DNA of 64,000 nucleotides from Candidatus Amesbacteria bacterium (GTDB lineage: Bacteria > Patescibacteriota > Microgenomatia > CAZETR01 > Amesbacteraceae): contig CAVTQH010000002.1 in NCBI GenBank assembly GCA_963736875.1, forward strand, positions 334,663 through 398,662, in the 5' to 3' direction. The notes below the pieces were generated by a model. It did not search any database. It was not told the DNA's origin and saw nothing but the letters and a program-made list of their open reading frames with translations. Within the stretch, counting starts at the first letter, position 1. Every line of letters begins with the position of its first letter. A program made the position numbers and the translations under genes. Positions 249-14,199 of the stretch are shown one piece after another.

Positions 249-3038
249 ATGTTCAAATTCTTAAATAAATTTCTCGATTTCAATCAGAAAGAAGTTAACC
301 GCCTGTATCTTAAAGTAAACGAGGTTAATACTCTTACCGAAAAATTCTCCAAGTTAAAAAAACCGGAGGATTTTGCAGCTGTTACCGCCGAGCTCAAAAA
401 GCGTCTTTCAGACGGCGCTTTGTTAAACGATTTGCTCCCGCCGGCATTTGCTGTTGTCCGCGAAGCTTCTGATCGGGCAATCGGATTAAGACCTTATGAC
501 GTCCAGTTGATGGCGGGAATCTGCTTTCATGAAGGCAAGGTTGCCGAACAAAAAACCGGTGAAGGCAAAACTTTATCAGCGGTTCCCGCCCTCTACCTCA
601 ATGCCCTATCAGGTCAGGGGACACATCTGGTTACAGTCAACGACTATCTGGCCCGTCGTGACGCCGGCTGGAATGGTCCCACTTTCCATTTATTGGGTTT
701 GTCGGTGGGCGTTATCATGCATGAACAGTCATTTTTATACGACCCGACTTACTTTGATCCGGCTCACGGTGATGACCGGCTGGCTCATCTGCGTCCCTGC
801 ACCCGTCAGGAAGCGTATGAAGCGGATGTTACTTATGGCACCAACAATGAATTCGGTTTTGATTACCTGCGGGATAACATGGTAGGGGAATTGTCGGAAA
901 TGTCCCAGCGCGGGCATCACTTTGCCATTGTTGATGAGGTGGATTCGATTCTTATCGATGAAGCCCGTACTCCTTTGATTATTTCCATGCCTGATACCGA
1001 ACCCACCCAGAAATACTACGAATTTGCCAAACTGGTCGATCGTCTGTCGGGGGACACCGATTATGTAATTGATGAAAAACATAGGACCGCCAATCTCACG
1101 GAACACGGCGTTAAAAAAGTGGAAAAAATGCTCGGTGTGGACAATCTTTACGAAAAAGATTTTGAAACAGTCCATCACATGGAAAATGCTCTCAAAGCCC
1201 GGACTCTGTTTCTCAAAGACAAGGATTACATTATTAAAGATGACGAAATCATCATCGTCGATGAATTTACCGGCCGGCTGATGCCCGGCCGCCGCTGGTC
1301 GGAAGGCATTCATCAGGCGGTGGAAGCCAAGGAAAATGTCCGTATCCAGCAGGAGTCAAAGACCATGGCCACCATTTCTTTCCAGAATTACTTCCGGATG
1401 TACGAAAAACTGGCCGGTATGACCGGAACTGCAGCCACCGAAGCCGAAGAACTGCAAAAAATCTACAAGCTGGAAGTGGTAATCGTTCCTACCAACAAAC
1501 CCATGGTCAGGCAGGATTTGCCCGATATTGTGTACAAAACCACGCGGGCAAAATATACGGCGTTAGCCAATCAAATAGCGGAACTGCATACCAAAGGTCA
1601 GCCGGTACTGGTGGGAACCACCTCGATCGAAAAAAACGAAATGGTCTCGGAACTTTTACACCGCAAAAAAATCCCCCACCAGCTTTTAAATGCCAAAAAC
1701 CACGAGCGTGAAGCTCAGATTATTTCCGAAGCCGGCAGGGTAGGTGCTGTAACCATAGCTACCAATATTGCCGGCCGGGGAGTGGATATTGTTCTGGGCG
1801 GGACTCCGCCCCCCAATCCCAAGTTCGTTCTGGGCCAGGACCGTTTGACCGATGCCCAATACAAAAAAGAGATGGATAAATGGCAAAAAGCCCACGACGA
1901 AGTGGTGGCTGCCGGCGGTTTGTGTGTTATCGGCACCGAACGGCATGAATCCCGCCGGATCGATAATCAGCTGCGCGGCCGCTCCGGCCGTCAGGGTGAT
2001 CCCGGCGCCACCCGTTTTTTCCTGGCTCTGGATGACGATATCATGCGGATTTTCGGCGGTGAGCAGGTAGCCAAAATTATGGGTTTTCTCAAAATCCCTG
2101 AGGATGAACCGATTGAACACGGCATGGTTTCCAAAGCTATCGAGCAGGCCCAGGTCAAAGTCGAAGGTTTTAATTTTGACGCCCGTAAAAGCGTGGTTGA
2201 TTACGACGATGTGATGAATAAACAGCGGGAAATTATTTACGGTCTGCGCCACCGGGTTTTAAACAATGAAATCAAGGACGAAGAAATTTTAACCAAACTT
2301 ACTTCCCAGATCAGAAATGTTATCAATATTTATGCTCCTCACGGAGTTGTTGAATCGGAAGTTTTACCTATTACCACAGCTCTGGTGGAAATAGTTCCCT
2401 TTGATGACAATTCCCAGACCGCCCTTTCAGCTCAATTTAAACAGCTGAGTGTAGCAGACGAAATTTCCAAATTAACGGACCAGATTATTACCGAGGCCTT
2501 CCAGAAGCGCCGCTCCCAGGTAGGGGATGATGTCTGGAAGCTGATTGTGAAGTTTTCATACCTTTCCGCCATCGACCATCTTTGGGTTGATCATCTCGAC
2601 GCTGTTGATGATTTGCGATCCGGCATCGGTCTTCGCGGTTACGGTCAGCGTGACCCCCTGGTTGAATACAAAGGAGAAGCTTTTTCCATGTTTGAAAGAT
2701 TGATCACTCAGGTGGAATCCGAGTTTTCCAAGCGTCTTTTCCGGATCCAAATTGGCTCCCCTCAGGAAGAGAGGCGGCAGGTCAGTCCCCAAATGATTGA
2801 GATCAAGCCGGATATGTCTGCAGTTACCGCCGCCCAAACTGATAGTGAGGTTCTGCCGGCCGGAAAACACGGCGGAAAAAAAGTCTCCGCTGACTTTATG
2901 GCAGCCATGCAGGGACTGCAAAAAGGCGGCGCCGAAAATCCCCACAAAAATATCGGCCGCAACGATCCCTGCTGGTGCGGCAAGAAGAAACCGGATGGCA
3001 CTCCTGTTAAATACAAACACTGTCATTACCCAAACTAG
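249..3038 (+). CDS. secA: preprotein translocase ATPase SecA
   Basis: 929 aa. DEAD-like motor motifs are present. The C-terminal zinc-finger tail CWCGKKKPDGTPVKYKHCH is typical of SecA. Confidence 0.95.
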   Translation: MFKFLNKFLDFNQKEVNRLYLKVNEVNTLTEKFSKLKKPEDFAAVTAELKKRLSDGALLNDLLPPAFAVVREASDRAIGLRPYDVQLMAGICFHEGKVAEQKTGEGKTLSAVPALYLNALSGQGTHLVTVNDYLARRDAGWNGPTFHLLGLSVGVIMHEQSFLYDPTYFDPAHGDDRLAHLRPCTRQEAYEADVTYGTNNEFGFDYLRDNMVGELSEMSQRGHHFAIVDEVDSILIDEARTPLIISMPDTEPTQKYYEFAKLVDRLSGDTDYVIDEKHRTANLTEHGVKKVEKMLGVDNLYEKDFETVHHMENALKARTLFLKDKDYIIKDDEIIIVDEFTGRLMPGRRWSEGIHQAVEAKENVRIQQESKTMATISFQNYFRMYEKLAGMTGTAATEAEELQKIYKLEVVIVPTNKPMVRQDLPDIVYKTTRAKYTALANQIAELHTKGQPVLVGTTSIEKNEMVSELLHRKKIPHQLLNAKNHEREAQIISEAGRVGAVTIATNIAGRGVDIVLGGTPPPNPKFVLGQDRLTDAQYKKEMDKWQKAHDEVVAAGGLCVIGTERHESRRIDNQLRGRSGRQGDPGATRFFLALDDDIMRIFGGEQVAKIMGFLKIPEDEPIEHGMVSKAIEQAQVKVEGFNFDARKSVVDYDDVMNKQREIIYGLRHRVLNNEIKDEEILTKLTSQIRNVINIYAPHGVVESEVLPITTALVEIVPFDDNSQTALSAQFKQLSVADEISKLTDQIITEAFQKRRSQVGDDVWKLIVKFSYLSAIDHLWVDHLDAVDDLRSGIGLRGYGQRDPLVEYKGEAFSMFERLITQVESEFSKRLFRIQIGSPQEERRQVSPQMIEIKPDMSAVTAAQTDSEVLPAGKHGGKKVSADFMAAMQGLQKGGAENPHKNIGRNDPCWCGKKKPDGTPVKYKHCHYPN

Positions 3039-3637
3039 AAATTTAAATCGGAGTAAAGATCTTTTATGAATGGAAAGAGCTTTGTTTTAATATCACTTCG
3101 TGAATGAATTTCAACTAGTTTTCTGGTAACTACAGAGTGGCAAGTAGGGCAAAGTATTATCCAATCCTTTGGGTCTTTCGATCCAGGTACTAAATGGTGC
3201 CATTCACACATTTTTATTCCACAGCATTCACATGTTTTTCCATACAATTCCAATGCCTTTTTTCGAAATGTGGACTTAGCCGTTCCTTTTCTATTTTTCC
3301 ACAATTTATAGTTCATGCGATAGTAACGTATAACCGTATAACTTACACCTAGGATTTTGGCAATTTCCTTATCGGTCTTCTTTTTCCAGTTGGAATTAAT
3401 AAACATTTTTTCTTTAAATACCAATTGGTTTGTATGTGGTCTTATCCCGGCCAGCTTAAGAGCATCAGACCACTTACCAAATCTTCTTACTATTGTTCTT
3501 GGTGAAGGTCCAGGTATTTTAACAATATCCCTAAAGGTGGGTGCTTTTTTAATTAGTTTATTTACTCCTTTTAAATAGGTAATAATATCGTTATTTGAAT
3601 AATCACGTTTAAATCTTTTATTTAAAGCTTTGTTCAT
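3035..3637 (-). CDS. free-standing HNH homing-endonuclease-like protein (NUMOD-type HTH + HNH)
   Basis: HNH motif CECCG...EWHHLVPGSKDPKDWIILCPTCH. IAKILGVSYTVIRYY resembles a NUMOD1 helix-turn-helix. The gene body is clearly more AT-rich than its flanks and sits convergent with secA, overlapping it by 4 nt. Confidence 0.7.
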   Translation of the reverse strand: MNKALNKRFKRDYSNNDIITYLKGVNKLIKKAPTFRDIVKIPGPSPRTIVRRFGKWSDALKLAGIRPHTNQLVFKEKMFINSNWKKKTDKEIAKILGVSYTVIRYYRMNYKLWKNRKGTAKSTFRKKALELYGKTCECCGIKMCEWHHLVPGSKDPKDWIILCPTCHSVVTRKLVEIHSRSDIKTKLFPFIKDLYSDLNF

Positions 3638-3733: not shown

Positions 3734-4441
3734 TTGGTAACCACATGGTATCCAGTGCTACACTTATTATTAATGGAGGAACAAATAGAACCGGGGCTAC
3801 CAACCAAGATCTCCTCAAAAGCATTTCCTAAATATTTTGCTACGGTTACCCCACTTTCAAAATTTCTTGCTGCAATAATATTTATAATTCTTCCGTTTTT
3901 TGGGTTTTATCTGGGAATAAAATACGGTGTATTAATCTCATCTGGCAAATCTGCTGCAAAACCTGTATTTATTAATAAGATTGTGGTTGCTACTCTAACT
4001 CCCCGCCCAAGCCTGCCTGCACCAACCGAAAAACCGGGGAAATGCGAATCTAACCCCTGTGTTGTAAATGGTATAGTTTATTATTCTGATGAACTGGGCG
4101 TAAAAAAAATAGTTGCCCAATCTGACTATAAAGAGACCCCTACCGCCGTAAGTGGTTATACTTATAAGTTCGCCCAATTATCCCCAAACAATAAGTTCAT
4201 ATCCCTTGGGAGTATAGGTCACGAATCAGTATCTTTTGAAGTTTATGATATTTCATCAGCAAAAACCCACTTAGTAAATGCTACCGGATTCGATTTTGGA
4301 TACTGGTTAAACGATAATAGGTTACTGGTCGTAGCAGAAGGTGGCATGGGTATAAGTAACGGGATCTTTATATCAAAAAACGGTACAGAGCCATGGATTA
4401 TGGAAAAAATCGGTGATGCACCAATTGATCTTAGATGGTAG
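3734..4441 (+). CDS. hypothetical membrane-anchored secreted protein
   Basis: N-terminal hydrophobic helix followed by a Pro-rich linker. No recognisable catalytic motifs. Confidence 0.45.
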   Translation: MVTTWYPVLHLLLMEEQIEPGLPTKISSKAFPKYFATVTPLSKFLAAIIFIILPFFGFYLGIKYGVLISSGKSAAKPVFINKIVVATLTPRPSLPAPTEKPGKCESNPCVVNGIVYYSDELGVKKIVAQSDYKETPTAVSGYTYKFAQLSPNNKFISLGSIGHESVSFEVYDISSAKTHLVNATGFDFGYWLNDNRLLVVAEGGMGISNGIFISKNGTEPWIMEKIGDAPIDLRW

Positions 4442-4573: not shown

Positions 4574-5095
4574 ATGCCGGAGATAGATGCGGATATAAAC
4601 CCTGAAACAGTTTCCCCGACGGGTTTTAAAGTTAAAAAAACTGCTGTTTTAGCTCTTTTCTTAACATTATTACTGCTGATTTCTGGATTTATGATATGGC
4701 GCATCAGGAATCCGGGTATTTCAACAGTACAGACTCCAAAGTTAGCCGTCGGTTTTCCTGAAATTCCCGTTTATCCCAAAGCCAACCTGATCAGTTCCGT
4801 TTCAAAACCGGATACTGATGGGACTTTTTATCAAAGTATCTGGGAAGTAAGTGCAAGTGTTCCTGATATCTCGGGTTGGTATTTGAAATCACTGCCGGAC
4901 TCCGGGTGGGTTATTGATGTCAAACCTGCAGATATAAATGTCCCCGACATCCAAAATATCATTTCCTTTAAAGAAGATAAGACTTTAAACCTGGGAATTA
5001 TTAAAGAAGCGGACGGAAATAACGTAAAGATAACGGCGGAGTTTTTTCCCCCGGTCAAAGATGAAGAATTTAGTGTAGAAACTGAAGGGCCATAA
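4574..5095 (+). CDS. hypothetical membrane-anchored protein
   Basis: Single N-terminal TM segment (AVLALFLTLLLLISGFMIW). Immediately upstream of the giant surface protein. Confidence 0.45.
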   Translation: MPEIDADINPETVSPTGFKVKKTAVLALFLTLLLLISGFMIWRIRNPGISTVQTPKLAVGFPEIPVYPKANLISSVSKPDTDGTFYQSIWEVSASVPDISGWYLKSLPDSGWVIDVKPADINVPDIQNIISFKEDKTLNLGIIKEADGNNVKITAEFFPPVKDEEFSVETEGP

Positions 5096-5100
5096 TTCAA

Positions 5101-8100
5101 ATGAACAGTGTACTTCAAAGATTGTCAGCATTTTTTGTATTTATTATTTCCTTACTGGTTTTTTGTACTTTTCCCGCTGAGGCTGCCTTCCGTTTTGTTT
5201 CCCTCGGCGATGCCCAGAATGAATCCGGAAGATTGGGAACTACGGCAAATCAGGCTAATTCAGTAAATCCTATCATTGCCATTTTTAACGGCGATCTGGA
5301 AAACGATGGGGTCACATCTGCCGGATTTTCCACAATGACTTCAGCCATGGGTAATTTATTCCCCAAGACTTTTCTGGTGCGGGGAAACCATGACAATCAC
5401 TTAGCAGGCAGCGCCAGCCTGTGGTCATCTTTACAAAACAACGCCGCCAAAGCCCAGGCTTTAGGAGCCAGAAATTATTCCGAATTAAATTCCAATCTGA
5501 CATTTTCCTTTGATTATGAAAATGTCCGCTTTATAGGTGCGGACGTTCCGGGTGGTACCACCCTGCTGTCATCTGCCCAGATCGCATGGATAGGTCAAAG
5601 GTTAACTGACGCTGAAATTAACCACCCAGAGTTACAGCATGCCTTTCTTTACTGGCACGGCCCGGTTTACTGCGTGGCAAGCAACCATTGCGGTTGCTCG
5701 GCAGCCAATAATTACAGCTGTACCCCCTCGTCGATTATTTCTCTGATCAACCAACACCCGATTGTCTCTGCCACCTTTCACGGTCACGAGCATATTCTGG
5801 GCTGGACCCATATCAGTTCCGCCCGCCTCAGTGCAATTACCCATGAATATGAACAATTTATTACCAGTCCCGCGGGAGGCTGGACTTATAACAGCTATCT
5901 GTATCCTGCCCGTGTGGATTATTTCTATCCGGATATGAGTGGTGGCGGATCGGGGTTTGCGGCAGTTGATGTCAACGGACTTTCCTTTACCTATAATATA
6001 TATAAGGTCGGGACAAATTCTCCCGTTTGGTCCAGAACATTTACCAAAGGTTCTATCGGGCCGACTCCGACCCCCGGAGGTCCTACGCCCACACGTATTC
6101 CTACTCCTACTCCGACCAGGACTCCCACCCCCACCCCGATCAGGACACCGACTCCGACCGGATCTCCTGTCCCCACCACCCCCCCCGTGGGATCGTATTA
6201 CGTCTCACCCGGCGGCAGCGGAACCACCTGTTCCTATTCCAGCCCCTGTACTCTGAATACCGGTTTGGGCAAGTTGTCGGCCGGATACGCTTTATATCTT
6301 CGCGGCGGAACATATAATCAGACAGTCAGCATTTCCAAAAGTGGCACATCCGCAGCCCCGATTACTATTGATAACTATCCGAACGAGACAGCTGTAATCG
6401 ACGGCAATTACACCATACCTACAGGCAGCAACTGGGCACCGCTGGTAACAATTTCCGGATCCTATGTCATCTTCCGGGATATTGAAGTCGCCCGGTCAAA
6501 CGGTGAGGGAATTTCAGTAAACGGAACTTTTAGTCGGGTAGTTAATATTTACTCGCATCACAATCATGAAGCCGGAGTGATTTTGAACGGTGATGATACG
6601 GTTGCCGATGGCTGCAGGATTTACTATAACTCAATGCATAACGAGTTCGGCGTACAGCTGCCTAACGGACTAGGTTGGGGTACCGGTATCAGTGCCGCCC
6701 GGCATCCCTCACGGGCAATCATCAGGAATACCGTCAGTTGGAATAATTGGGGTGAGGGAATTTCTACTTTCGGTGCTGACCATACTATTTTAGAAGACAA
6801 CGTTTCTTACGATAACTGGTCCGTGAACATGTACATCCAGAATGTGCAGTATGCCGTTGTTCAGCGGAACCTTATTTACCGCACTCCTAATAATATTTTT
6901 TCAGGCATTGCCTATAAAGCCAGTGAAACCGGATTGGTGGAGGACAATGAGGCTGCCGATGCCCAGTACGGAATCAGTTCCAATAATATTTTCGTCAACA
7001 ATATTGTTTACGGAGCCAAGGGTAATTTTGTCCATTGGAGCGGCAGCACGGGGATGGTAAATGCAGTAATTGCCAATAACATATTTGTGAATGCCACAGG
7101 CCGTTCCAACGTCGATATTCAGGGCAGTAATACAAACATTCAATTCCGAAATAACCTTATTCTTCAGGATGATGGTCTGTCGATTGCCAGTATCGGCAGC
7201 GGGGTCACCAAGTCCAATAATCTGTGGTCTCGAACTCCGCCGGCAAATGCGGGCGGGACAAATGATGTCATAGGTGATCCGCTCCTGTCCCGGCAGGGAA
7301 CAATAGGCCCCGGTCAACTGACAGGGAACTGGTTTAAACTGACTTCTTCATCCCCGGCCATCAACAAAGCCGTCAGTTTGGCGCAGGTAGTCAATGATTA
7401 CTTCAAGTCGGCCAGACCTTACGGGGCGCTTCCGGACATCGGAGCGCATGAGTACGGAGGAGTAATGCCGCCTGTGACACCCACACCCACTTACGCGCCA
7501 ACCCCTACGCTCAGACCCACATCCACACCCGGACCGGGAACTCCCACTCCGACTCCTTCAAGCACCACTGCCAGGTTGATCCGGACCGTAAATTTATACC
7601 AGCTTTCCCCGCCTTCACCGGATTCATCCGGTATTACCTATCTCCAAAATTCCGGAAGACTCTTAATTTCCGATTCGGAAGTGGAGGAAATGCCGATATA
7701 TGCAGGTAAAAATCTTTTCGAAATCACCACCGGCGGCAGCCTGGTCAAAACCGCCACCACCACCGGTTATTCAAATGAACCAACGGGATTGACCTACAAT
7801 CCGAATAATAATCATCTGTATATCTCCGATGACAACTATCAGCGGATTTTCGATTTAAATCCGGGAACAGACACACAGTACGGTACCGCGGATGATACAG
7901 TTACATATTTCAGTACATCAGCATTCGGCTGCATTGATCCCGAGGGCGTGGCTTATGGCCAGGGCAATCTTTATATTATCAGCGGCACCCAGAGAATAGT
8001 CTATAAAACAACATTAAGCGGCAGTTTACTGGCAACTTTGGATCTTTCCGGATCAACCTACGGGCTTCAGGATTCGGAAGGGATCGCATATGATCCGGAC

Positions 8101-9591
8101 AGTAACACTCTGTATGTCATCGACGGTGCAAATAAGGCGCTGATAGAAATAACCACCTCCGGTGCACTGCTTCGGAAAATCAATATTTCGGAGGCAAATG
8201 CCGTATTACCCGGTGATGTTGCCATTGCCCCTTCCAGCAGCACCACGGATAATCCGGCGGTAAAAAGTTTATATATTGTCGCCAGAGGTGTGGACAATGA
8301 TGCTGATCCCTCTGAAAACGACGGAAAGATGTACGAAATGTCAGTAGCCTTTGCCAATTCTCCGACGGTTCAGCCGACACCTCCACCGACAGCCACCTCT
8401 GCCCCTCCCACAAGTTTCCCCACACCCCAGCAGGTTCCTGGAGACGCCAACGGGGACAGACAGGTGAATGAAGCCGATTATGCCGTCTGGAAGACTAATT
8501 ATAATCAGAGTGTACCTATAGGGGATTTCGCCCGGGGGGATTTCAGTGACCCGATTGTTCGGGCAGACGGCAAAGTCAACGGTCTGGATTACGCAGTCTG
8601 GTTTAATCACTTCACCGCCTCTTCACCTACCAATACCCCCGTTCCGACCGTTGTTCCCAGTAGTACTCCCAGACCCAGTGTCATACCCACTCCGCCTCCA
8701 AATACCACACCGACACCCACGTCCCCACCTTCAGGCAGGCGGATTACCAAATACTACGGTGTTGACAGGGGTAATCCGATTACCGACGCCAACTACTCGA
8801 TTTTAAGTCAGCACGCTGTTAAAACAGTGGTGGTGAGTACCGGTATTAACAGTTCTTCTGACTGGCAGAATATTGTCAATTTAGCCGCTAAATACAACTT
8901 TAATGTGGTCATCTGGCCGAATCAGGGAGGCGATGTCCCGGGGTGCGGTTGGGAGTCGCCTTATCAGGAACCTCAGAATGGCGATTATATCTGGAGGGTG
9001 AAGCCCATGCTGGACGCTATCGGAGGCAATCCCCGGATTATCGGTATTGTCAGTGCCCATGAACCGTTCTGGAGCTGTATCACCTCAATTGACGTTATGG
9101 CGACAATTAAAACCCAGCTGAAAGACTATGTAAAAACCAAGTTCGGCAGGAATGATTTCAAGGTCTGGAATTATATCGATAATATTGCCGAAAACGGTCT
9201 TCGGGGTGCCGATATCGGCAGGGTAATGGATGTGGCGGTCACCTGGCAGCATTGTTTCGGCGGGGCTGAAGGCAGCTGTCCGGGGGCTCAACAAAAAATC
9301 ATGAATGACCGTGCTGCAATAAACAGCGCCGGCTTGGACGGCACGGTCGACCTGGTGTATCTGTTCCAGACTTTTGCCATGGGCAGCGGTTATCGCATGC
9401 CTACTTACCAGGAAATGTATGACTGGTCCAAGACTTTCCTGGGTACCAATGCTTTGGACGGATTTATGTGGTATACCTGGGGAGCCTGCTGGTACTCCTC
9501 TGACCTATATTGTCCGACAAATACCCATCCCAATCAGAATTTATGGCCGAATATGAATAACGTATACGACCAGTTTGTGATCAAAAGCTGA
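5101..9591 (+). CDS. giant multidomain secreted protein: metallophosphoesterase - beta-helix - beta-propeller (NHL-like) - dockerin-like pair - C-terminal domain
   Basis: 1496 aa with a signal peptide. N-terminal domain has calcineurin-like GD...GNHD...GHEH motifs. A parallel beta-helix region carries N-x-x-N repeats. PT-rich linkers (PTPTPT) separate the domains. LYISD/LYIISG/LYVIDG blade repeats are present. Two dockerin-like Ca-binding repeats read DANGDRQVNEADYAVW and ADGKVNGLDYAVW. Confidence 0.8.
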   Translation: MNSVLQRLSAFFVFIISLLVFCTFPAEAAFRFVSLGDAQNESGRLGTTANQANSVNPIIAIFNGDLENDGVTSAGFSTMTSAMGNLFPKTFLVRGNHDNHLAGSASLWSSLQNNAAKAQALGARNYSELNSNLTFSFDYENVRFIGADVPGGTTLLSSAQIAWIGQRLTDAEINHPELQHAFLYWHGPVYCVASNHCGCSAANNYSCTPSSIISLINQHPIVSATFHGHEHILGWTHISSARLSAITHEYEQFITSPAGGWTYNSYLYPARVDYFYPDMSGGGSGFAAVDVNGLSFTYNIYKVGTNSPVWSRTFTKGSIGPTPTPGGPTPTRIPTPTPTRTPTPTPIRTPTPTGSPVPTTPPVGSYYVSPGGSGTTCSYSSPCTLNTGLGKLSAGYALYLRGGTYNQTVSISKSGTSAAPITIDNYPNETAVIDGNYTIPTGSNWAPLVTISGSYVIFRDIEVARSNGEGISVNGTFSRVVNIYSHHNHEAGVILNGDDTVADGCRIYYNSMHNEFGVQLPNGLGWGTGISAARHPSRAIIRNTVSWNNWGEGISTFGADHTILEDNVSYDNWSVNMYIQNVQYAVVQRNLIYRTPNNIFSGIAYKASETGLVEDNEAADAQYGISSNNIFVNNIVYGAKGNFVHWSGSTGMVNAVIANNIFVNATGRSNVDIQGSNTNIQFRNNLILQDDGLSIASIGSGVTKSNNLWSRTPPANAGGTNDVIGDPLLSRQGTIGPGQLTGNWFKLTSSSPAINKAVSLAQVVNDYFKSARPYGALPDIGAHEYGGVMPPVTPTPTYAPTPTLRPTSTPGPGTPTPTPSSTTARLIRTVNLYQLSPPSPDSSGITYLQNSGRLLISDSEVEEMPIYAGKNLFEITTGGSLVKTATTTGYSNEPTGLTYNPNNNHLYISDDNYQRIFDLNPGTDTQYGTADDTVTYFSTSAFGCIDPEGVAYGQGNLYIISGTQRIVYKTTLSGSLLATLDLSGSTYGLQDSEGIAYDPDSNTLYVIDGANKALIEITTSGALLRKINISEANAVLPGDVAIAPSSSTTDNPAVKSLYIVARGVDNDADPSENDGKMYEMSVAFANSPTVQPTPPPTATSAPPTSFPTPQQVPGDANGDRQVNEADYAVWKTNYNQSVPIGDFARGDFSDPIVRADGKVNGLDYAVWFNHFTASSPTNTPVPTVVPSSTPRPSVIPTPPPNTTPTPTSPPSGRRITKYYGVDRGNPITDANYSILSQHAVKTVVVSTGINSSSDWQNIVNLAAKYNFNVVIWPNQGGDVPGCGWESPYQEPQNGDYIWRVKPMLDAIGGNPRIIGIVSAHEPFWSCITSIDVMATIKTQLKDYVKTKFGRNDFKVWNYIDNIAENGLRGADIGRVMDVAVTWQHCFGGAEGSCPGAQQKIMNDRAAINSAGLDGTVDLVYLFQTFAMGSGYRMPTYQEMYDWSKTFLGTNALDGFMWYTWGACWYSSDLYCPTNTHPNQNLWPNMNNVYDQFVIKS

Positions 9592-9596
9592 TATCT

Positions 9597-11333
9597 ATGT
9601 TTAAACAAAAAATAATCAATATATTGTCAGCCTTGCCGCTGAAATTTAACCGGCTTAAGGTTTTTTGCCGGGAAAATAATTTCAATAAATTAACTATGAC
9701 GGCAGTGCTGGTCGTATTGTTGGGGGTGGGAGTTGTTTTAACCAGGAACATCACCCGGTTATTCACCCGGGCTGTGGGTGAAACCGTGTCAGTTTATTTT
9801 GTACCTTCAAGTGCCACTCTTCCGCCTTCTGCCAGAGTCAGCATGATGCTGGACGCCAAATCCAACAGGATATTATTTACCCGGGTGGTACTGCAGTATG
9901 ATCCCGCCAAAGTGAATATTACGGGCAGTATCACTCCCGGGACGTCTTTGGGTCGGGCAGTTCTGGTAACGGATACGGCTACAGCCAACGCTACCGGCAG
10001 GGCGGTAATCGTCTTGGGGACAGCTCCTTCCGCATCCCCGCCGACGGGAATATTTGAAGTAGCCAGTTTCAGTTTGGTTGCGGTTTCCGGTCTTCCCAAC
10101 GATAGCAGCACCCTGAATTATGTCAGCTCGGAGATGGAAATTACCGAAAAAAGTGAGATTGATTTGCCTATCAGTGTAACGCCGGTTCAACTTGTACTGA
10201 ATCCCGTAAACCCCACCCAGACACCTGTTCCCAGCCTGACTCCCAGACCTACTTCCACTCCCGGACCGACTACAGGACCGGTGCCCACATCAGTGCCGGT
10301 CCCGACAGTTCCGCCTCCCGGAGGTCAGACCCTGATCTTTACACCTACTGACGATGCGGTTATATATGCCAGTAATCCGAATGCCAATGCCGGAAACGGA
10401 ATAGCCGTCAGGATAGACAATTCCCCGGTGGAGCATACCGTGATGAAATTTACCGTTTCCGGAGTCAGCGGCCGGACGGTCACGTCAGCCAAGCTCCGGC
10501 TGTACAACACCCAGGTTTCGGTATTCGGGGGTTCCTTCTACAAAGCTGCCGGTACCTGGACCCAATCCTCGGTCACCTGGAACAACGCTCCCCAGATATC
10601 AAATCTCATCACCTCTTTGGGAGCAGTCGGTTCGGGCAAGTGGTATGAAGTTGATATGACTTCTTACATAATTGCAGACGGCACCTACTCTTTGAGGATT
10701 ACCTCAAATACCGGTGACGGGGCTGACTACTCTTCCAGGGAAGGCAGTAATCCTCCCCAGCTGGTGGTTACCGTTTCCGGACCGACTACAGAACCGGTGC
10801 CCACATCCACACCGATAATATTACCTACAAACTATCCCACATCAGTGCCGGTCCCGACAGTTCCGCCTCCCGGAGGTCAGACCCTGACCTTTACACCTAC
10901 GGACGATGCGGTTATATATGCCAGTAATCCGAATGCCAATGCCGGAAACGGAATAGCCGTCAGGATAGACAATTCCCCGGTGGAGCATACCGTGATGAAA
11001 TTTACCGTTTCCGGAGTCAGCGGCCGGACGGTCACGTCAGCCAAGCTCCGGCTGTACAACACCCAGGTTTCGGTATTCGGGGGTTCCTTCTACAAAGCTG
11101 CCGGTACCTGGACCCAATCCTCGGTCACCTGGAACAACGCTCCCCAGATATCAAATCTCATCACCTCCCTGGGAGCAGTCGGTTCGGGCAAGTGGTATGA
11201 AGTTGATATGACTTCTTACATAATTGCAGACGGCACCTACTCTTTGAGGATTACCTCAAATACCGGTGACGGGGCTGACTACTCTTCCAGGGAAGGCAGT
11301 AATCCCCCTCAGCTGGTGGTCACTTTAGAGTGA
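9597..11333 (+). CDS. secreted protein: cohesin-like N-terminal domain + two tandem CBM/DNRLRE-like modules
   Basis: 578 aa with an N-terminal TM/signal segment. Residues about 60-190 resemble a cohesin (VSVYFVP...RVVLQYDPAKVNITG). A ~165-aa module follows, with motifs IAVRIDNS, VMKFTVSG, AKLRLYN and VTWNNAP. It occurs twice and is nearly identical at the DNA level. Confidence 0.75.
   Translation: MFKQKIINILSALPLKFNRLKVFCRENNFNKLTMTAVLVVLLGVGVVLTRNITRLFTRAVGETVSVYFVPSSATLPPSARVSMMLDAKSNRILFTRVVLQYDPAKVNITGSITPGTSLGRAVLVTDTATANATGRAVIVLGTAPSASPPTGIFEVASFSLVAVSGLPNDSSTLNYVSSEMEITEKSEIDLPISVTPVQLVLNPVNPTQTPVPSLTPRPTSTPGPTTGPVPTSVPVPTVPPPGGQTLIFTPTDDAVIYASNPNANAGNGIAVRIDNSPVEHTVMKFTVSGVSGRTVTSAKLRLYNTQVSVFGGSFYKAAGTWTQSSVTWNNAPQISNLITSLGAVGSGKWYEVDMTSYIIADGTYSLRITSNTGDGADYSSREGSNPPQLVVTVSGPTTEPVPTSTPIILPTNYPTSVPVPTVPPPGGQTLTFTPTDDAVIYASNPNANAGNGIAVRIDNSPVEHTVMKFTVSGVSGRTVTSAKLRLYNTQVSVFGGSFYKAAGTWTQSSVTWNNAPQISNLITSLGAVGSGKWYEVDMTSYIIADGTYSLRITSNTGDGADYSSREGSNPPQLVVTLE
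10261..11331 (+). repeat. tandem direct duplication (2 x ~552 bp, ~99% identical) inside CDS
   Basis: The sequence starting cccacatcagtgccggtcccgacag at 10284 recurs at 10836. Only a handful of substitutions separate the copies. The identical minus-strand ORFs 10325..10510 and 10877..11062 are shadows of this repeat. Confidence 0.9.
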
Positions 11334-11420
11334 TTTCTCTGATGGTAGTGAATTATTTGGGGATTTGATTGCCGAACACAAATAAGCTCAAGACATAGGC
11401 CTTATTTAGTATAATAAGCC

Positions 11421-11765
11421 ATGGCGGTGGAATACCATATTTGTCTTACCATCCGTCCGGACCGGGAAGAGGAACTGGTATCTTTATCCCGTGTCCACTC
11501 CCGGTTCGTTTCCCGCTCCCCAGGCCGAAGCGCTTGGTTATATGACGCTCAAAACAGAACTTTGCATCATACCGTCGGCGGTGAACGGACGTTGTTAACC
11601 CGGATTACCAACAATTATGTATCCGGCAGACTTTTAGACATTGACCAGCTGGGACCGGACTCCCTTAATGTGGCTATTGTCGTTGATAAATCCGAACTGG
11701 AACGTCTTGAATCCGATACCGACCACTTCCTAATAAGCGCTCTTATTTCCTATCCATGTATATGA
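11421..11765 (+). CDS. hypothetical protein
   Basis: 114-aa ORF. TATAAT lies immediately upstream at about 11408. No recognisable motifs. Confidence 0.35.
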   Translation: MAVEYHICLTIRPDREEELVSLSRVHSRFVSRSPGRSAWLYDAQNRTLHHTVGGERTLLTRITNNYVSGRLLDIDQLGPDSLNVAIVVDKSELERLESDTDHFLISALISYPCI

Positions 11766-11786
11766 TATAGTCGCCCGGAAATATTT

Positions 11787-12623
11787 ATGCCGACTGCAGA
11801 AAATGTTCATGGATTTGGTATAGCCGGTTTACCGGTAGCCGAAAGTTATGACACCCGGATTAACGGAAAGTCCATAGCTGCGCATTTTGACCGGTTGGTA
11901 AAGGACACACGGACATCGCCATTCAATGAATATTTTGATGAAACACTCCTGGATCTTTTAAGCAGGTTGGAAATACCTCAGGATTTCACCATGCTTGATA
12001 TAGGCTGCGGAAATGGTAAAACTTTAGCCCGGATCAGCCGCGATTTTACCCCTCGTCCCGGCAAACTTATGGGGTTTGATGTGTCACGGGAGATGGTATC
12101 AATTGCCGGAAGCAATTACCCGTTTCTCGAAATTTCAGGCGGTGACATGAGGAATATATTACCGGAAAGGGATAAGATAGCCGATGTCATTACCAGTGTA
12201 AATACAATTCATTACCTCCCGACACTAAAAGATGTAGCCGAAACTTACGATACAGCATTTCGGTTGCTTAAGCCGGGTGGATGGTACATTCTGGTTACGG
12301 GTGATCAGGCATCAACTTCCCGGTGGCGAGACATGTCGTTGGACCAATTTCATGAATGGATCGCCGATGGTCGTAAACCCATGGATTGGTCAATGCCTGA
12401 TAGCGAGGGCCGGCCGGTTTTTCGTATGCAATTTTATCCGTATCTGAATGAGGAGCATAAGTCTGCCCTGGAGACAGCCGGTTTTAATCCCGTTAAGGAA
12501 TATAGACAGTACCCCCCAAGCCAAAACATTGCCGAACTTAACAAAAATGTATACGAACTTCTCAGTCAGGATCCGATTTTTGTTTTTTTTGTGGCCCAAA
12601 AACCAAGCCGATGGAATGTATAA
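11787..12623 (+). CDS. class I SAM-dependent methyltransferase (small-molecule type) with C-terminal extension
   Basis: Motif I LDIGCGNGK and the acidic motif II that follows. No DNA-methyltransferase motifs (no DPPY or PC). Confidence 0.7.
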   Translation: MPTAENVHGFGIAGLPVAESYDTRINGKSIAAHFDRLVKDTRTSPFNEYFDETLLDLLSRLEIPQDFTMLDIGCGNGKTLARISRDFTPRPGKLMGFDVSREMVSIAGSNYPFLEISGGDMRNILPERDKIADVITSVNTIHYLPTLKDVAETYDTAFRLLKPGGWYILVTGDQASTSRWRDMSLDQFHEWIADGRKPMDWSMPDSEGRPVFRMQFYPYLNEEHKSALETAGFNPVKEYRQYPPSQNIAELNKNVYELLSQDPIFVFFVAQKPSRWNV

Positions 12624-12632
12624 TCAAGATCA

Positions 12633-12902
12633 ATGGCTGACCTGAACGTACTGGAAAAAAGGATTAACGAACTGGAGAAGAGACTGTTCAGGCTTGAGGG
12701 TGACAAAGAGTGGATGGACGGGCTTTACAGGAAAGCCGAAGAGCTGGTTGTTAAAAATAATAAAGCCTCAGTAATATTCCTGCAGAGAAAATTGATGATC
12801 GATCTTGAAAGAGCTGCCGGACTGTTGGACAAGCTTGAATCAAACGGGATAATTGGACCGGCATTGGGGGTAGAACCGAGAAAAGTACTGGCTAAAAAGT
12901 AG
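12633..12902 (+). CDS. stand-alone FtsK gamma (winged-helix, KOPS-reading) domain protein with N-terminal coiled coil
   Basis: ASVIFLQRKLMIDLERAAGLLDKLESNGIIGPALGVEPRKVL closely matches the FtsK gamma consensus (AS...LQR...I...RAA.L.D.LE..GI.GP). The first 30 aa form a heptad coiled coil. Confidence 0.6.
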   Translation: MADLNVLEKRINELEKRLFRLEGDKEWMDGLYRKAEELVVKNNKASVIFLQRKLMIDLERAAGLLDKLESNGIIGPALGVEPRKVLAKK

Positions 12903-14199
12903 GAAGCGAAAATTCTTCCGTATGAATATGTGAATTCTTCACTTTTTTTATATGAAGCTGTTTTTTCATAGCTACCATCAGAGCGGTGGGACCGCATACG
13001 AATATTTCCCGGTCGGAAAAATCCTTAACGTCGCCGGCTATCGTTTCCACAGTCAACCTCCCTTTTTTTGCTGACAGATGCAGGTGGAATTTGAATTCAG
13101 GGTTGATGGCAGCAATTTGCTCAAATATATCCCTGTATACAGCCTCTTCGGTATCTTTCACGCTGTAATAAAAATCCACAGAAAATCCCTCGTGCATTTC
13201 CAGACTTTTTGCCAAAGACACAAACGGAGTTACCCCTATCCCCCCGGCTATCCAAATCTGTTTTTTATACGGGTAAAACTTATAACTGAATCGGCCGAAT
13301 GCACCCTCCACTAACACCGGCACCCCGGGTTTTAAAAGCTTTAATGTTTCCGTAAAGTCGCCTAATGCTTTGACTCCTACAGTGAGCGTTGTTTCACCTT
13401 CGGCACAGGTTAATGAAAACGGATGGGACTGGTGCGCCACTCCGCGGGAACTTGGTAGGATATAAATAAACTGCCCGGCCGCATAGTCTATCCCGCCTCC
13501 CAGTCCCGGGGTGATTGAAATTTCAAGTACATCCCTGGTCAGGTTTTTAATTCCGGTGACGATATATGCTTTTTTCGGTACTAACCACTGATTAAGCAAT
13601 GTCCTGTATGTGTAGCTGACAAGAGCGGCTCCGGCTAACACTAAAAGATAAACTTTTAATGCTGGAGACAGAGCCAGCGTGCTTCCGATCAGAAATACAT
13701 GCAGGCTGGCTAAAATAAACGCCAGTCCCAGGTACTGGTGGGTTTTTTTCCAAAAGTCATATTCCAGCTTTACAAAAAGCGTCAGCACCAACAACAAAAT
13801 CATAAGTAATAGGGCAATAATTCCCAAGTACACAGGTAAATTCTGCACATCCGGCCATAATAAATTTACAGCAGCCGGTAGGGAAATGGACGCATAAGAC
13901 AATGTAATCAGTAGCGGGTGGTAAAGGATGAGCACAAAAGCGGTCGCTCCCGTCAGGTGGTGCCAAATATATGCCCGGGGTAATCCGGCGAAAACCGGTT
14001 CGATTACTTTTAGCCGCGCAGAAATTACAAAATTAAGACAATACAGACAATATCCGATCAAAGCTGTCGCTTGCCCCAGCGCCAGACTTGCTCGTGAAAA
14101 AGTAGAAAAATTTGCATGAGACCACCACCAAAAAAGCGGTATTATGGCCAGTATGCTTAAAATTACCGGCCCGGTTCTCCCGATATATTTTGTCATCAC
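12892..14199 (-). CDS. ferric-reductase-like transmembrane oxidoreductase with FAD/NAD(P)-binding domain (NOX/FRE family)
   Basis: Six TM helices carrying His pairs. FAD motif HPFSL. NAD motif GGIGVTPF. C-terminal CGP motif. Confidence 0.75.
   Translation of the reverse strand: MMTKYIGRTGPVILSILAIIPLFWWWSHANFSTFSRASLALGQATALIGYCLYCLNFVISARLKVIEPVFAGLPRAYIWHHLTGATAFVLILYHPLLITLSYASISLPAAVNLLWPDVQNLPVYLGIIALLLMILLLVLTLFVKLEYDFWKKTHQYLGLAFILASLHVFLIGSTLALSPALKVYLLVLAGAALVSYTYRTLLNQWLVPKKAYIVTGIKNLTRDVLEISITPGLGGGIDYAAGQFIYILPSSRGVAHQSHPFSLTCAEGETTLTVGVKALGDFTETLKLLKPGVPVLVEGAFGRFSYKFYPYKKQIWIAGGIGVTPFVSLAKSLEMHEGFSVDFYYSVKDTEEAVYRDIFEQIAAINPEFKFHLHLSAKKGRLTVETIAGDVKDFSDREIFVCGPTALMVAMKKQLHIKKVKNSHIHTEEFSLPTF

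Follow-up and report, generated by a model that had tools for sequence, protein, structure and literature searches.

The closest functional analogue of the gene pair described here is ClcC/ClcD of Cellulosilyticum lentocellum (Clole_2599/Clole_2598), in which a gene for a single cohesin lies next to a gene for a single dockerin and the two products form a heterodimer (PMC13487519). Cohesin and dockerin modules that are not part of cellulosomes are known across diverse bacteria and archaea (Peer et al. 2009, as cited in PMC9012536). Here, two adjacent open reading frames (ORFs) from a 64-kb stretch of a Candidatus Amesbacteria contig (CAVTQH010000002.1), referred to below as the window, were analysed computationally; ORF1 encodes a large protein with a dockerin module and ORF2 a protein with a cohesin-fold domain. 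With moderate confidence, and from sequence comparisons, the two genes are read as a "cargo plus anchor" cassette belonging to a cohesin–dockerin system that is non-cellulosomal and is found in Microgenomates-type Patescibacteria (Candidate Phyla Radiation, CPR) and possibly beyond them. A literature search for cohesins and dockerins in the CPR, Patescibacteria or Microgenomates returned no account of this gene pair, an absence that is not proof of novelty.

Like ClcC/ClcD, the locus places a cohesin gene beside a dockerin gene as a minimal pair with no large scaffolded complex. ClcC/ClcD, however, belong to a cellulolytic Firmicute, are associated with cellulase activity and were shown experimentally to pair, whereas the pairing of ORF1 and ORF2 is proposed from sequence comparisons. 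The cargo of ORF1 also differs, consisting of phosphoesterase, beta-helix and propeller domains, and ORF2 carries carbohydrate-binding modules (CBMs) of family CBM96 and an N-terminal hydrophobic helix, with a cohesin too divergent for the Pfam model. The broader class to which the pair would belong is that of the non-cellulosomal modules (Peer et al. 2009; Archaeoglobus fulgidus 2xdh; anaerobic methanotrophic (ANME) archaea, PMC9012536); what sets the pair apart from these is a conserved bicistronic order, dockerin and then cohesin, with a dedicated dockerin subtype, for which no description from Patescibacteria was found. By fold, the modules of ORF2 and ORF1 are similar to those of the clostridial type I complexes (6kgc, 4uyp, 1ohz and 2ccl), with sequence identities of 9-15%, but they differ in having one cohesin per protein, no cellulolytic enzymes and an insertion in the second dockerin loop. 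The locus, a non-cellulosomal minimal cohesin–dockerin pair, is a sound annotation and not a surprise.

ORF1 and ORF2 (residue numbers below refer to their own proteins) have the positions and adjacency reported in the first-pass annotation of this DNA. The ATG of ORF2 follows the stop codon of ORF1 on the same strand after a 5-nucleotide (nt) gap (TATCT), no terminator-like site was found between the two genes, and they are probably co-transcribed. The features that bear on docking are as follows.

5101..9591, + strand: ORF1, 1496 residues, multidomain dockerin-bearing cargo protein (ORF list and Pfam/NCBIfam)
8437..8598, + strand: dockerin module, ORF1 residues 1113-1166 (PF00404, PDB dockerin matches and an alignment with 7 dockerins)
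9597..11333, + strand: ORF2, 578 residues, cohesin-CBM96-CBM96 protein
9687..9743, + strand: hydrophobic helix near the N terminus of ORF2, residues ~31-49, following a basic segment (hydropathy of ORF2 and of 130 members of its family)
9759..10211, + strand: cohesin-fold domain, ORF2 residues 55-205 (AlphaFold2 model and Foldseek)
10350..10772, + strand: CBM96/DNRLRE module 1, ORF2 residues 252-392 (NF033679, E 1.3e-44; PF24517)
10881..11324, + strand: CBM96/DNRLRE module 2, ORF2 residues 429-576 (PF24517, E 4e-61)

A resemblance of the N-terminal domain of ORF2 to cohesins had been suggested from its strand pattern, and structure prediction bears this out. AlphaFold2 modelling with a 70-sequence alignment gave an all-beta sandwich (predicted local distance difference test, pLDDT, 97; predicted template-modelling score, pTM, 0.89); the model obtained from the single sequence was unusable (pLDDT 31). 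When the alignment-based model was compared with the PDB using Foldseek, the top 50 matches were all cohesins, the best being 6kgc_A (E 5e-11, template-modelling (TM) score 0.75), and they included the non-cellulosomal Archaeoglobus cohesin 2xdh. The domain has the nine-stranded, flattened jelly-roll beta-sandwich of the cohesin fold and is not recognised by the Pfam profile; because its fold matches cohesins while the Pfam hidden Markov model (HMM) does not, the modelled domain and its relatives are classed as a divergent cohesin subfamily. PDB sequence searches with the ORF2 domain and with the family profile gave no match, and a word-indexed search with the domain gave no homologue. The motif most conserved in the family, ANxTG (A-N-x-T-G, ORF2 residues 130-134), falls in a short helix between two strands (model residues 73-80) and is, according to the model, a candidate functional surface element.

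An exhaustive HMMER search with the ORF2 cohesin domain returned at least 385 cluster representatives at E<=1e-3 and 170 at E<=1e-10. Among the top 150 members, 135 contain one copy of the domain, 13 contain two and 2 contain three. In most members, the domain begins 30-60 residues from the N terminus and is preceded by a basic stretch and then a ~19-residue hydrophobic helix, and a small-x-Ala motif is conserved a few residues past this helix. Given this motif, the N-terminal helix of ORF2 may act as a signal-anchor in the membrane or belong to a signal peptide that is cleaved off. A Pfam scan of 120 full-length family members matched Dockerin_1 in 30, CBM96 in 12 and Cohesin in 8 (best E 7.6e-8), and one member, P0023, is named "Cohesin domain-containing protein" of Candidatus Woeseibacteriota (Microgenomates group, Patescibacteria) by UniRef. 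Given a family of this size with a UniRef-named cohesin, and the non-cellulosomal modules of other bacteria and archaea, the first-pass statement that such a system is unusual outside cellulolytic Firmicutes was overstated.

Type I dockerins are built from two tandem repeats of ~22 residues, each with a 12-residue EF-hand-like calcium loop followed by a helix. Two repeats on the canonical pattern had been reported in ORF1. The first calcium loop, DANGDRQVNEAD, fits the pattern save for R in place of G at position 6, repeat 1 being otherwise canonical (DANGDRQVNEADYAVW). Repeat 2 is atypical: its loop is interrupted by five extra residues, DPIVR, inserted after loop position 3 and before position 4, beyond which the repeat retains ...DGKVNGLDYAVW. 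The helix after the second loop, GLDYAVWFNHF, retains the consensus GLDYVIWLNNY of the dockerin subtype described below. With a gathering score of 22.9 bits, Pfam Dockerin_1 (PF00404) recognises the isolated 81-residue segment of ORF1 (30.5 bits, E 4e-7), and the first matches of a phmmer search of PDB sequences were the dockerin-bearing entries 2yik, 5nrm and 5nrk (E 0.001-0.004). This dockerin loop is the only one in the window, as ORF2 is the sole member of the cohesin family there. We are highly confident that the ORF1 module is a dockerin and the ORF2 module a cohesin. The ORF1 module was also aligned with 7 dockerins whose genes adjoin family cohesin genes; across this alignment, repeat 1 varies at the usual recognition positions and repeat 2 is near constant, and this hints at one dominant binding face and at a single rather than a dual binding mode.

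The dockerins encoded next to family cohesins share the subtype consensus PGDANGDGxVDxxDYxIWxxHY...GDFNxxxxVDGxDYxIWxNNYG. Genes ending in or containing such a dockerin (PGDANGDG...GLDYVIW.NNYG) immediately precede a family cohesin gene at four further independent loci (L081, L082, L083 and L084/L085). Two of these loci carry P0009 (51% identity) and P0011 (44-45%), the closest ORF2 homologues whose gene context could be used. At L081 (P0009), three consecutive subtype-dockerin genes, for a PQQ-type propeller, an unannotated protein and a DUF5060 protein, are followed directly by the cohesin gene. At L082 (P0011, a cohesin with CBM96), the upstream gene, which ends in a dockerin and looks pectate-lyase-like by eye, overlaps the start of the cohesin gene by 4 nt, and at L083 a dockerin ORF lies immediately upstream of the cohesin gene. 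The contigs with P0023 (L084/L085, 3314-10413) contain a tandem arrangement of dockerin protein, cohesin, dockerin protein and cohesin, the first dockerin protein having RHS/YD-shell matches and the second no Pfam match, which suggests from sequence that toxin-like cargo may use the same docking system. Both of these dockerins are internal, ~115 residues from the C terminus, and more YD-shell genes and an AbiEii gene come after the tandem cassettes. At L081, a second, far more divergent gene of the family (11320-12426; E 7e-8, family HMM) lies immediately downstream of the first.

As an independent test of this gene order, DG[LV]DY[VT]IWxNNYG was converted into a degenerate DNA pattern and sought in metagenome contigs of the Joint Genome Institute (JGI), which gave 53 loci with 61 ORFs in 43 clusters at 90% identity; gene order was scored where at least 700 nt follow the dockerin gene, as is the case for 38 non-redundant genes. 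For 9 of the 38, a family cohesin domain begins 111-272 nt past the stop codon, that is, in the next gene; for another 7, in arrays of several dockerin genes, it is 1.6-7.2 kb away on the same strand, also downstream; and in one case it is inside the same ORF. The family HMM matched 32 ORFs in the 0.40 Mb that surround the dockerin matches, against no match in 1.40 Mb of bacterial loci unrelated to them. ORF1 and ORF2 show this same arrangement, in which a subtype-dockerin gene immediately precedes a same-strand gene encoding an N-terminal hydrophobic helix and a family cohesin. That dockerin genes are repeatedly followed by cohesin genes favours a functional docking pair, and ORF1 is judged somewhat likely, from these sequence features, to dock on ORF2. 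The first-pass annotation is supported in part, in that genuine dockerin and cohesin-fold modules are encoded by adjacent genes, with CBMs on the cohesin protein, in a gene order that recurs in related loci.

Several observations weigh against the pairing of ORF1 with ORF2. The HMMER check proposed in the first-pass annotation gave a divided outcome, since Dockerin_1, which detects the isolated segment, stays below its gathering score on the whole 1496-residue protein (16.5 bits, E 0.0098), and Pfam Cohesin (PF00963) does not match ORF2 even at E<=10; among 70 isolated family domains, Cohesin is the commonest Pfam match, yet it is found in 5, weakly (best E 0.0027). The insertion in the second calcium loop (GDFS-DPIVR-ADGKVNGLD) is absent from the 7 aligned relatives, and the dockerin of ORF1 is internal rather than C-terminal, with a Pro/Thr linker and then a 282-residue domain beyond it. 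No cohesin was found in the stored flank of 21 of the 38 dockerin-subtype genes (55%), and no dockerin was found adjacent to the cohesin-CBM96 gene of a further locus (L086), so adjacency is frequent and directional, not obligatory. The modules could also be specific for partners encoded outside the window.

The alternative that best survives accepts both modules as real and holds that ORF1 and ORF2 are not partners but members of a co-regulated island of secreted surface proteins, with the partner of each module encoded elsewhere. The cohesin of ORF2 might, for example, bind the classical C-terminal dockerins of other cohesin-family proteins: dockerin-type calcium loops, mostly C-terminal, occur in 60 of the top 150 family members, and these loops are of a different-looking DLNxDGKVN type that implies other pairings. 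Although this reading would also account for the dockerin genes that lack a flanking cohesin and for the disrupted second loop of ORF1, it sits poorly with the strongly non-random, directional adjacency to one dockerin subtype at several independent loci, tandem pairs included, and with the domain fusions, described below, that tie the domain types of ORF1 to CBM96. We consider it unlikely, though it carries appreciable weight. Less probable still is a reading without any interaction pair, in which the cohesin fold is a generic beta-sandwich adhesin or stalk and the dockerin-like segment is a calcium-binding, EF-hand-like linker that stabilises a large enzyme.

The weakest alternative, a true (mini-)cellulosome degrading plant cell-wall cellulose, was rejected on domain content and is regarded as very improbable: cohesin, dockerin and CBM do occur together, and some related cargo resembles polysaccharide-degrading enzymes (Pel9A-like beta-helix, Polysacc_lyase, DUF5060), but ORF1 has no cellulase or hemicellulase family by Pfam, related cargo also comprises propellers, phosphoesterases and RHS proteins, the CBMs are of family CBM96, with an alginate-binding founding member (PMC9971899), and not CBM2 or CBM3, and there is neither a cellulose-binding CBM nor an SLH or sortase anchor. 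Searches with Pfam/NCBIfam found neither SLH repeats nor a sortase motif, leaving the N-terminal hydrophobic helix of ORF2 as the candidate anchor; there is one cohesin in ORF2 and no other of the family in the window, hence no multi-cohesin scaffoldin. The label "cellulosome-type" applied in the first-pass annotation was accordingly dropped.

With the cassette reading retained, the cargo of ORF1 can be set out. The phosphoesterase, beta-helix and propeller that had been recognised in it by inspection were all recovered by profile searches, and the remaining parts of the protein are listed with them.

ORF1 residues ~1-28, + strand: signal-like hydrophobic N-terminal segment
5191..5796, + strand: calcineurin-like phosphoesterase (Metallophos), ORF1 residues 31-232 (PF00149, E 4.2e-7, 31 bits, cutoff 21.5)
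6478..7455, + strand: right-handed beta-helix (Beta_helix/NosD, ORF1 residues 460-687) and choice-of-anchor Q domain (residues 745-785) (PF13229, 32.5 bits; PF05048, weak; NF041518, 25.3 bits)
7648..8193, + strand: beta-propeller (NHL/SdiA-regulated/phytase-like), ORF1 residues ~850-1031 (PF06977, 34.2 bits; PF01436, 29.3 bits)
8743..9588, + strand: C-terminal domain of an unannotated family ("KYYGVDRG...HEP..."), ORF1 residues 1215-1496 (homologue search)

The C-terminal domain has no Pfam match and no sequence relative in the PDB. Its 30 homologues, none of which is annotated by Pfam, are in the majority stand-alone secreted proteins of 290-440 residues, and 10 of them have at least one dockerin-like loop, placed C-terminal to the homologous domain. 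Residues H-E-P, D, W, C, E and Q are invariant in this family (motif "KYYGVDRG...AHEPFW...VTWQHCFGGAEG"), and from the H-E-P motif the domain is suspected to be a TIM-barrel, clan GH-A-like glycosidase. The propeller likewise has a stand-alone counterpart, a propeller-dockerin protein (L137) with 47% identity to ORF1 residues 810-1174, which stops right after the dockerin and does not have the loop insertion seen in ORF1. With the propeller and the C-terminal domain each seen elsewhere in a dockerin-tagged protein of its own, ORF1 resembles a fusion of such cargo modules, and its Pfam domain types recur among other proteins that carry this dockerin subtype.

The range of such cargo was assessed by a Pfam scan of 39 proteins, namely the 38 non-redundant dockerin-subtype proteins and ORF1, which is included in the counts. 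Dockerin_1 was matched at E<=0.001 in 28 of the 39 (best 1.9e-13), a cut-off that ORF1 misses as a whole protein. Beta_helix was found in 8, among them Pel9A-like in 3 and DUF1565 in 4; the others include DUF5060 (4), RHS (2), Metallophos (2), Polysacc_lyase (1) and DUF4832/DUF4874 (1), together with propellers of the PQQ, NHL and phytase-like types. No classical cellulase family was found among the 39 proteins.

The two CBM/DNRLRE-like modules that had been noted in ORF2 are confirmed as CBM96 (E 4e-61 and 1e-44), PF24517 scoring 206 bits (cutoff 26) over two stretches and NF033679 152 bits (cutoff 34). They form a near-identical 552-nt tandem duplication (10284-10768 and 10836-11320, with 6 mismatches in 485 nt), which is either very recent or a repeat collapsed or expanded in the assembly. 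The founding member of CBM96, from the alginate lyase Dp0100, binds alginate (PMC9971899), and ORF2 has two clear modules of the same family. In relatives, CBM96 is often part of the same polypeptide as catalytic domains: of the 120 best relatives of full-length ORF2, ~54 combine it with Metallophos, these often being named "acid phosphatase type 7" in the source databases, and 3 combine it with Beta_helix/NosD. The modules of ORF2 sit instead on the cohesin protein and would reach catalytic domains through docking alone. As ORF1 brings the domain types that are fused elsewhere and ORF2 brings the CBM96, it would fit these sequences that docking here replaces the covalent fusion.

Module identities, fold, gene adjacency and recurrent gene order are shown by the analysis; for export, ORF1-ORF2 binding, calcium dependence, localisation and substrate, we infer the following course. 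ORF1 would be exported by means of its signal-like N-terminal segment, and ORF2 inserted or exported by its hydrophobic helix, after which ORF2 would either stay anchored in the membrane or be released onto polysaccharide through its two CBM96 modules. The single dockerin of ORF1 would bind the single cohesin of ORF2 in a calcium-dependent manner, joining the catalytic modules non-covalently to CBM96 and, if ORF2 remains anchored, to the cell. The CBM96 pair would direct the complex to a glycan, the target probably being an acidic polysaccharide and not cellulose. The pair probably serves to hold enzymes on the cell or on a polysaccharide.

Other genes around the pair were also noted. Two small predicted membrane proteins without Pfam matches are encoded upstream of ORF1 on the same strand (3734-4441 and 4574-5095); the second stops 5 nt ahead of the ORF1 start and may be in one operon with ORF1. 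Further upstream, a 200-residue protein with a homing-endonuclease-associated HNH repeat (PF18780) is encoded on the minus strand (3035-3637), convergent to secA (249-3038), the 3' end of which it overlaps by 4 nt. The best matches to SecA were distant, with 55% identity over the full length (Candidatus Collierbacteria) and 58% over a partial match; together with P0023, the one named cohesin-family member, they make a patescibacterium of Microgenomates type a likely source. Downstream of the pair, again on the minus strand (12892-14199), lies a gene for a ferric-reductase-like membrane flavoprotein (Ferric_reduct, FAD_binding_8 and NAD_binding_1), which seems unusual for an apparently reduced patescibacterial genome.

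An attached life on other cells is assumed for CPR/Patescibacteria, whose surface biology is poorly known. If the cassette reading is correct, these bacteria would own a recurrent, genetically compact means of fixing interchangeable enzymes, and perhaps also toxins, to an anchor protein. This would provide a testable handle on polysaccharide processing or host interaction in the CPR and would extend cohesin–dockerin biology to a large lineage. Because the standard cohesin profile misses the domain in this lineage, current cohesin censuses probably undercount. More tentatively, and as a possibility that we would not yet rate as probable, the locus may be one instance of a widespread Microgenomates/CPR system in which secreted cargo with a dedicated dockerin subtype is held on the cell surface by single-cohesin anchors encoded immediately downstream, the ultra-small cells that bear it probably being episymbiotic. 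The cargo of such a system would comprise polysaccharide-lyase-like beta-helices, glycosidase-like domains, beta-propellers, phosphoesterases and RHS/YD-shell toxin-like proteins. It would amount to a modular "plug-in" surface display for attacking or attaching to host envelopes or extracellular polysaccharide, one that would have evolved apart from cellulosomes and been largely missed by the Pfam Cohesin model.

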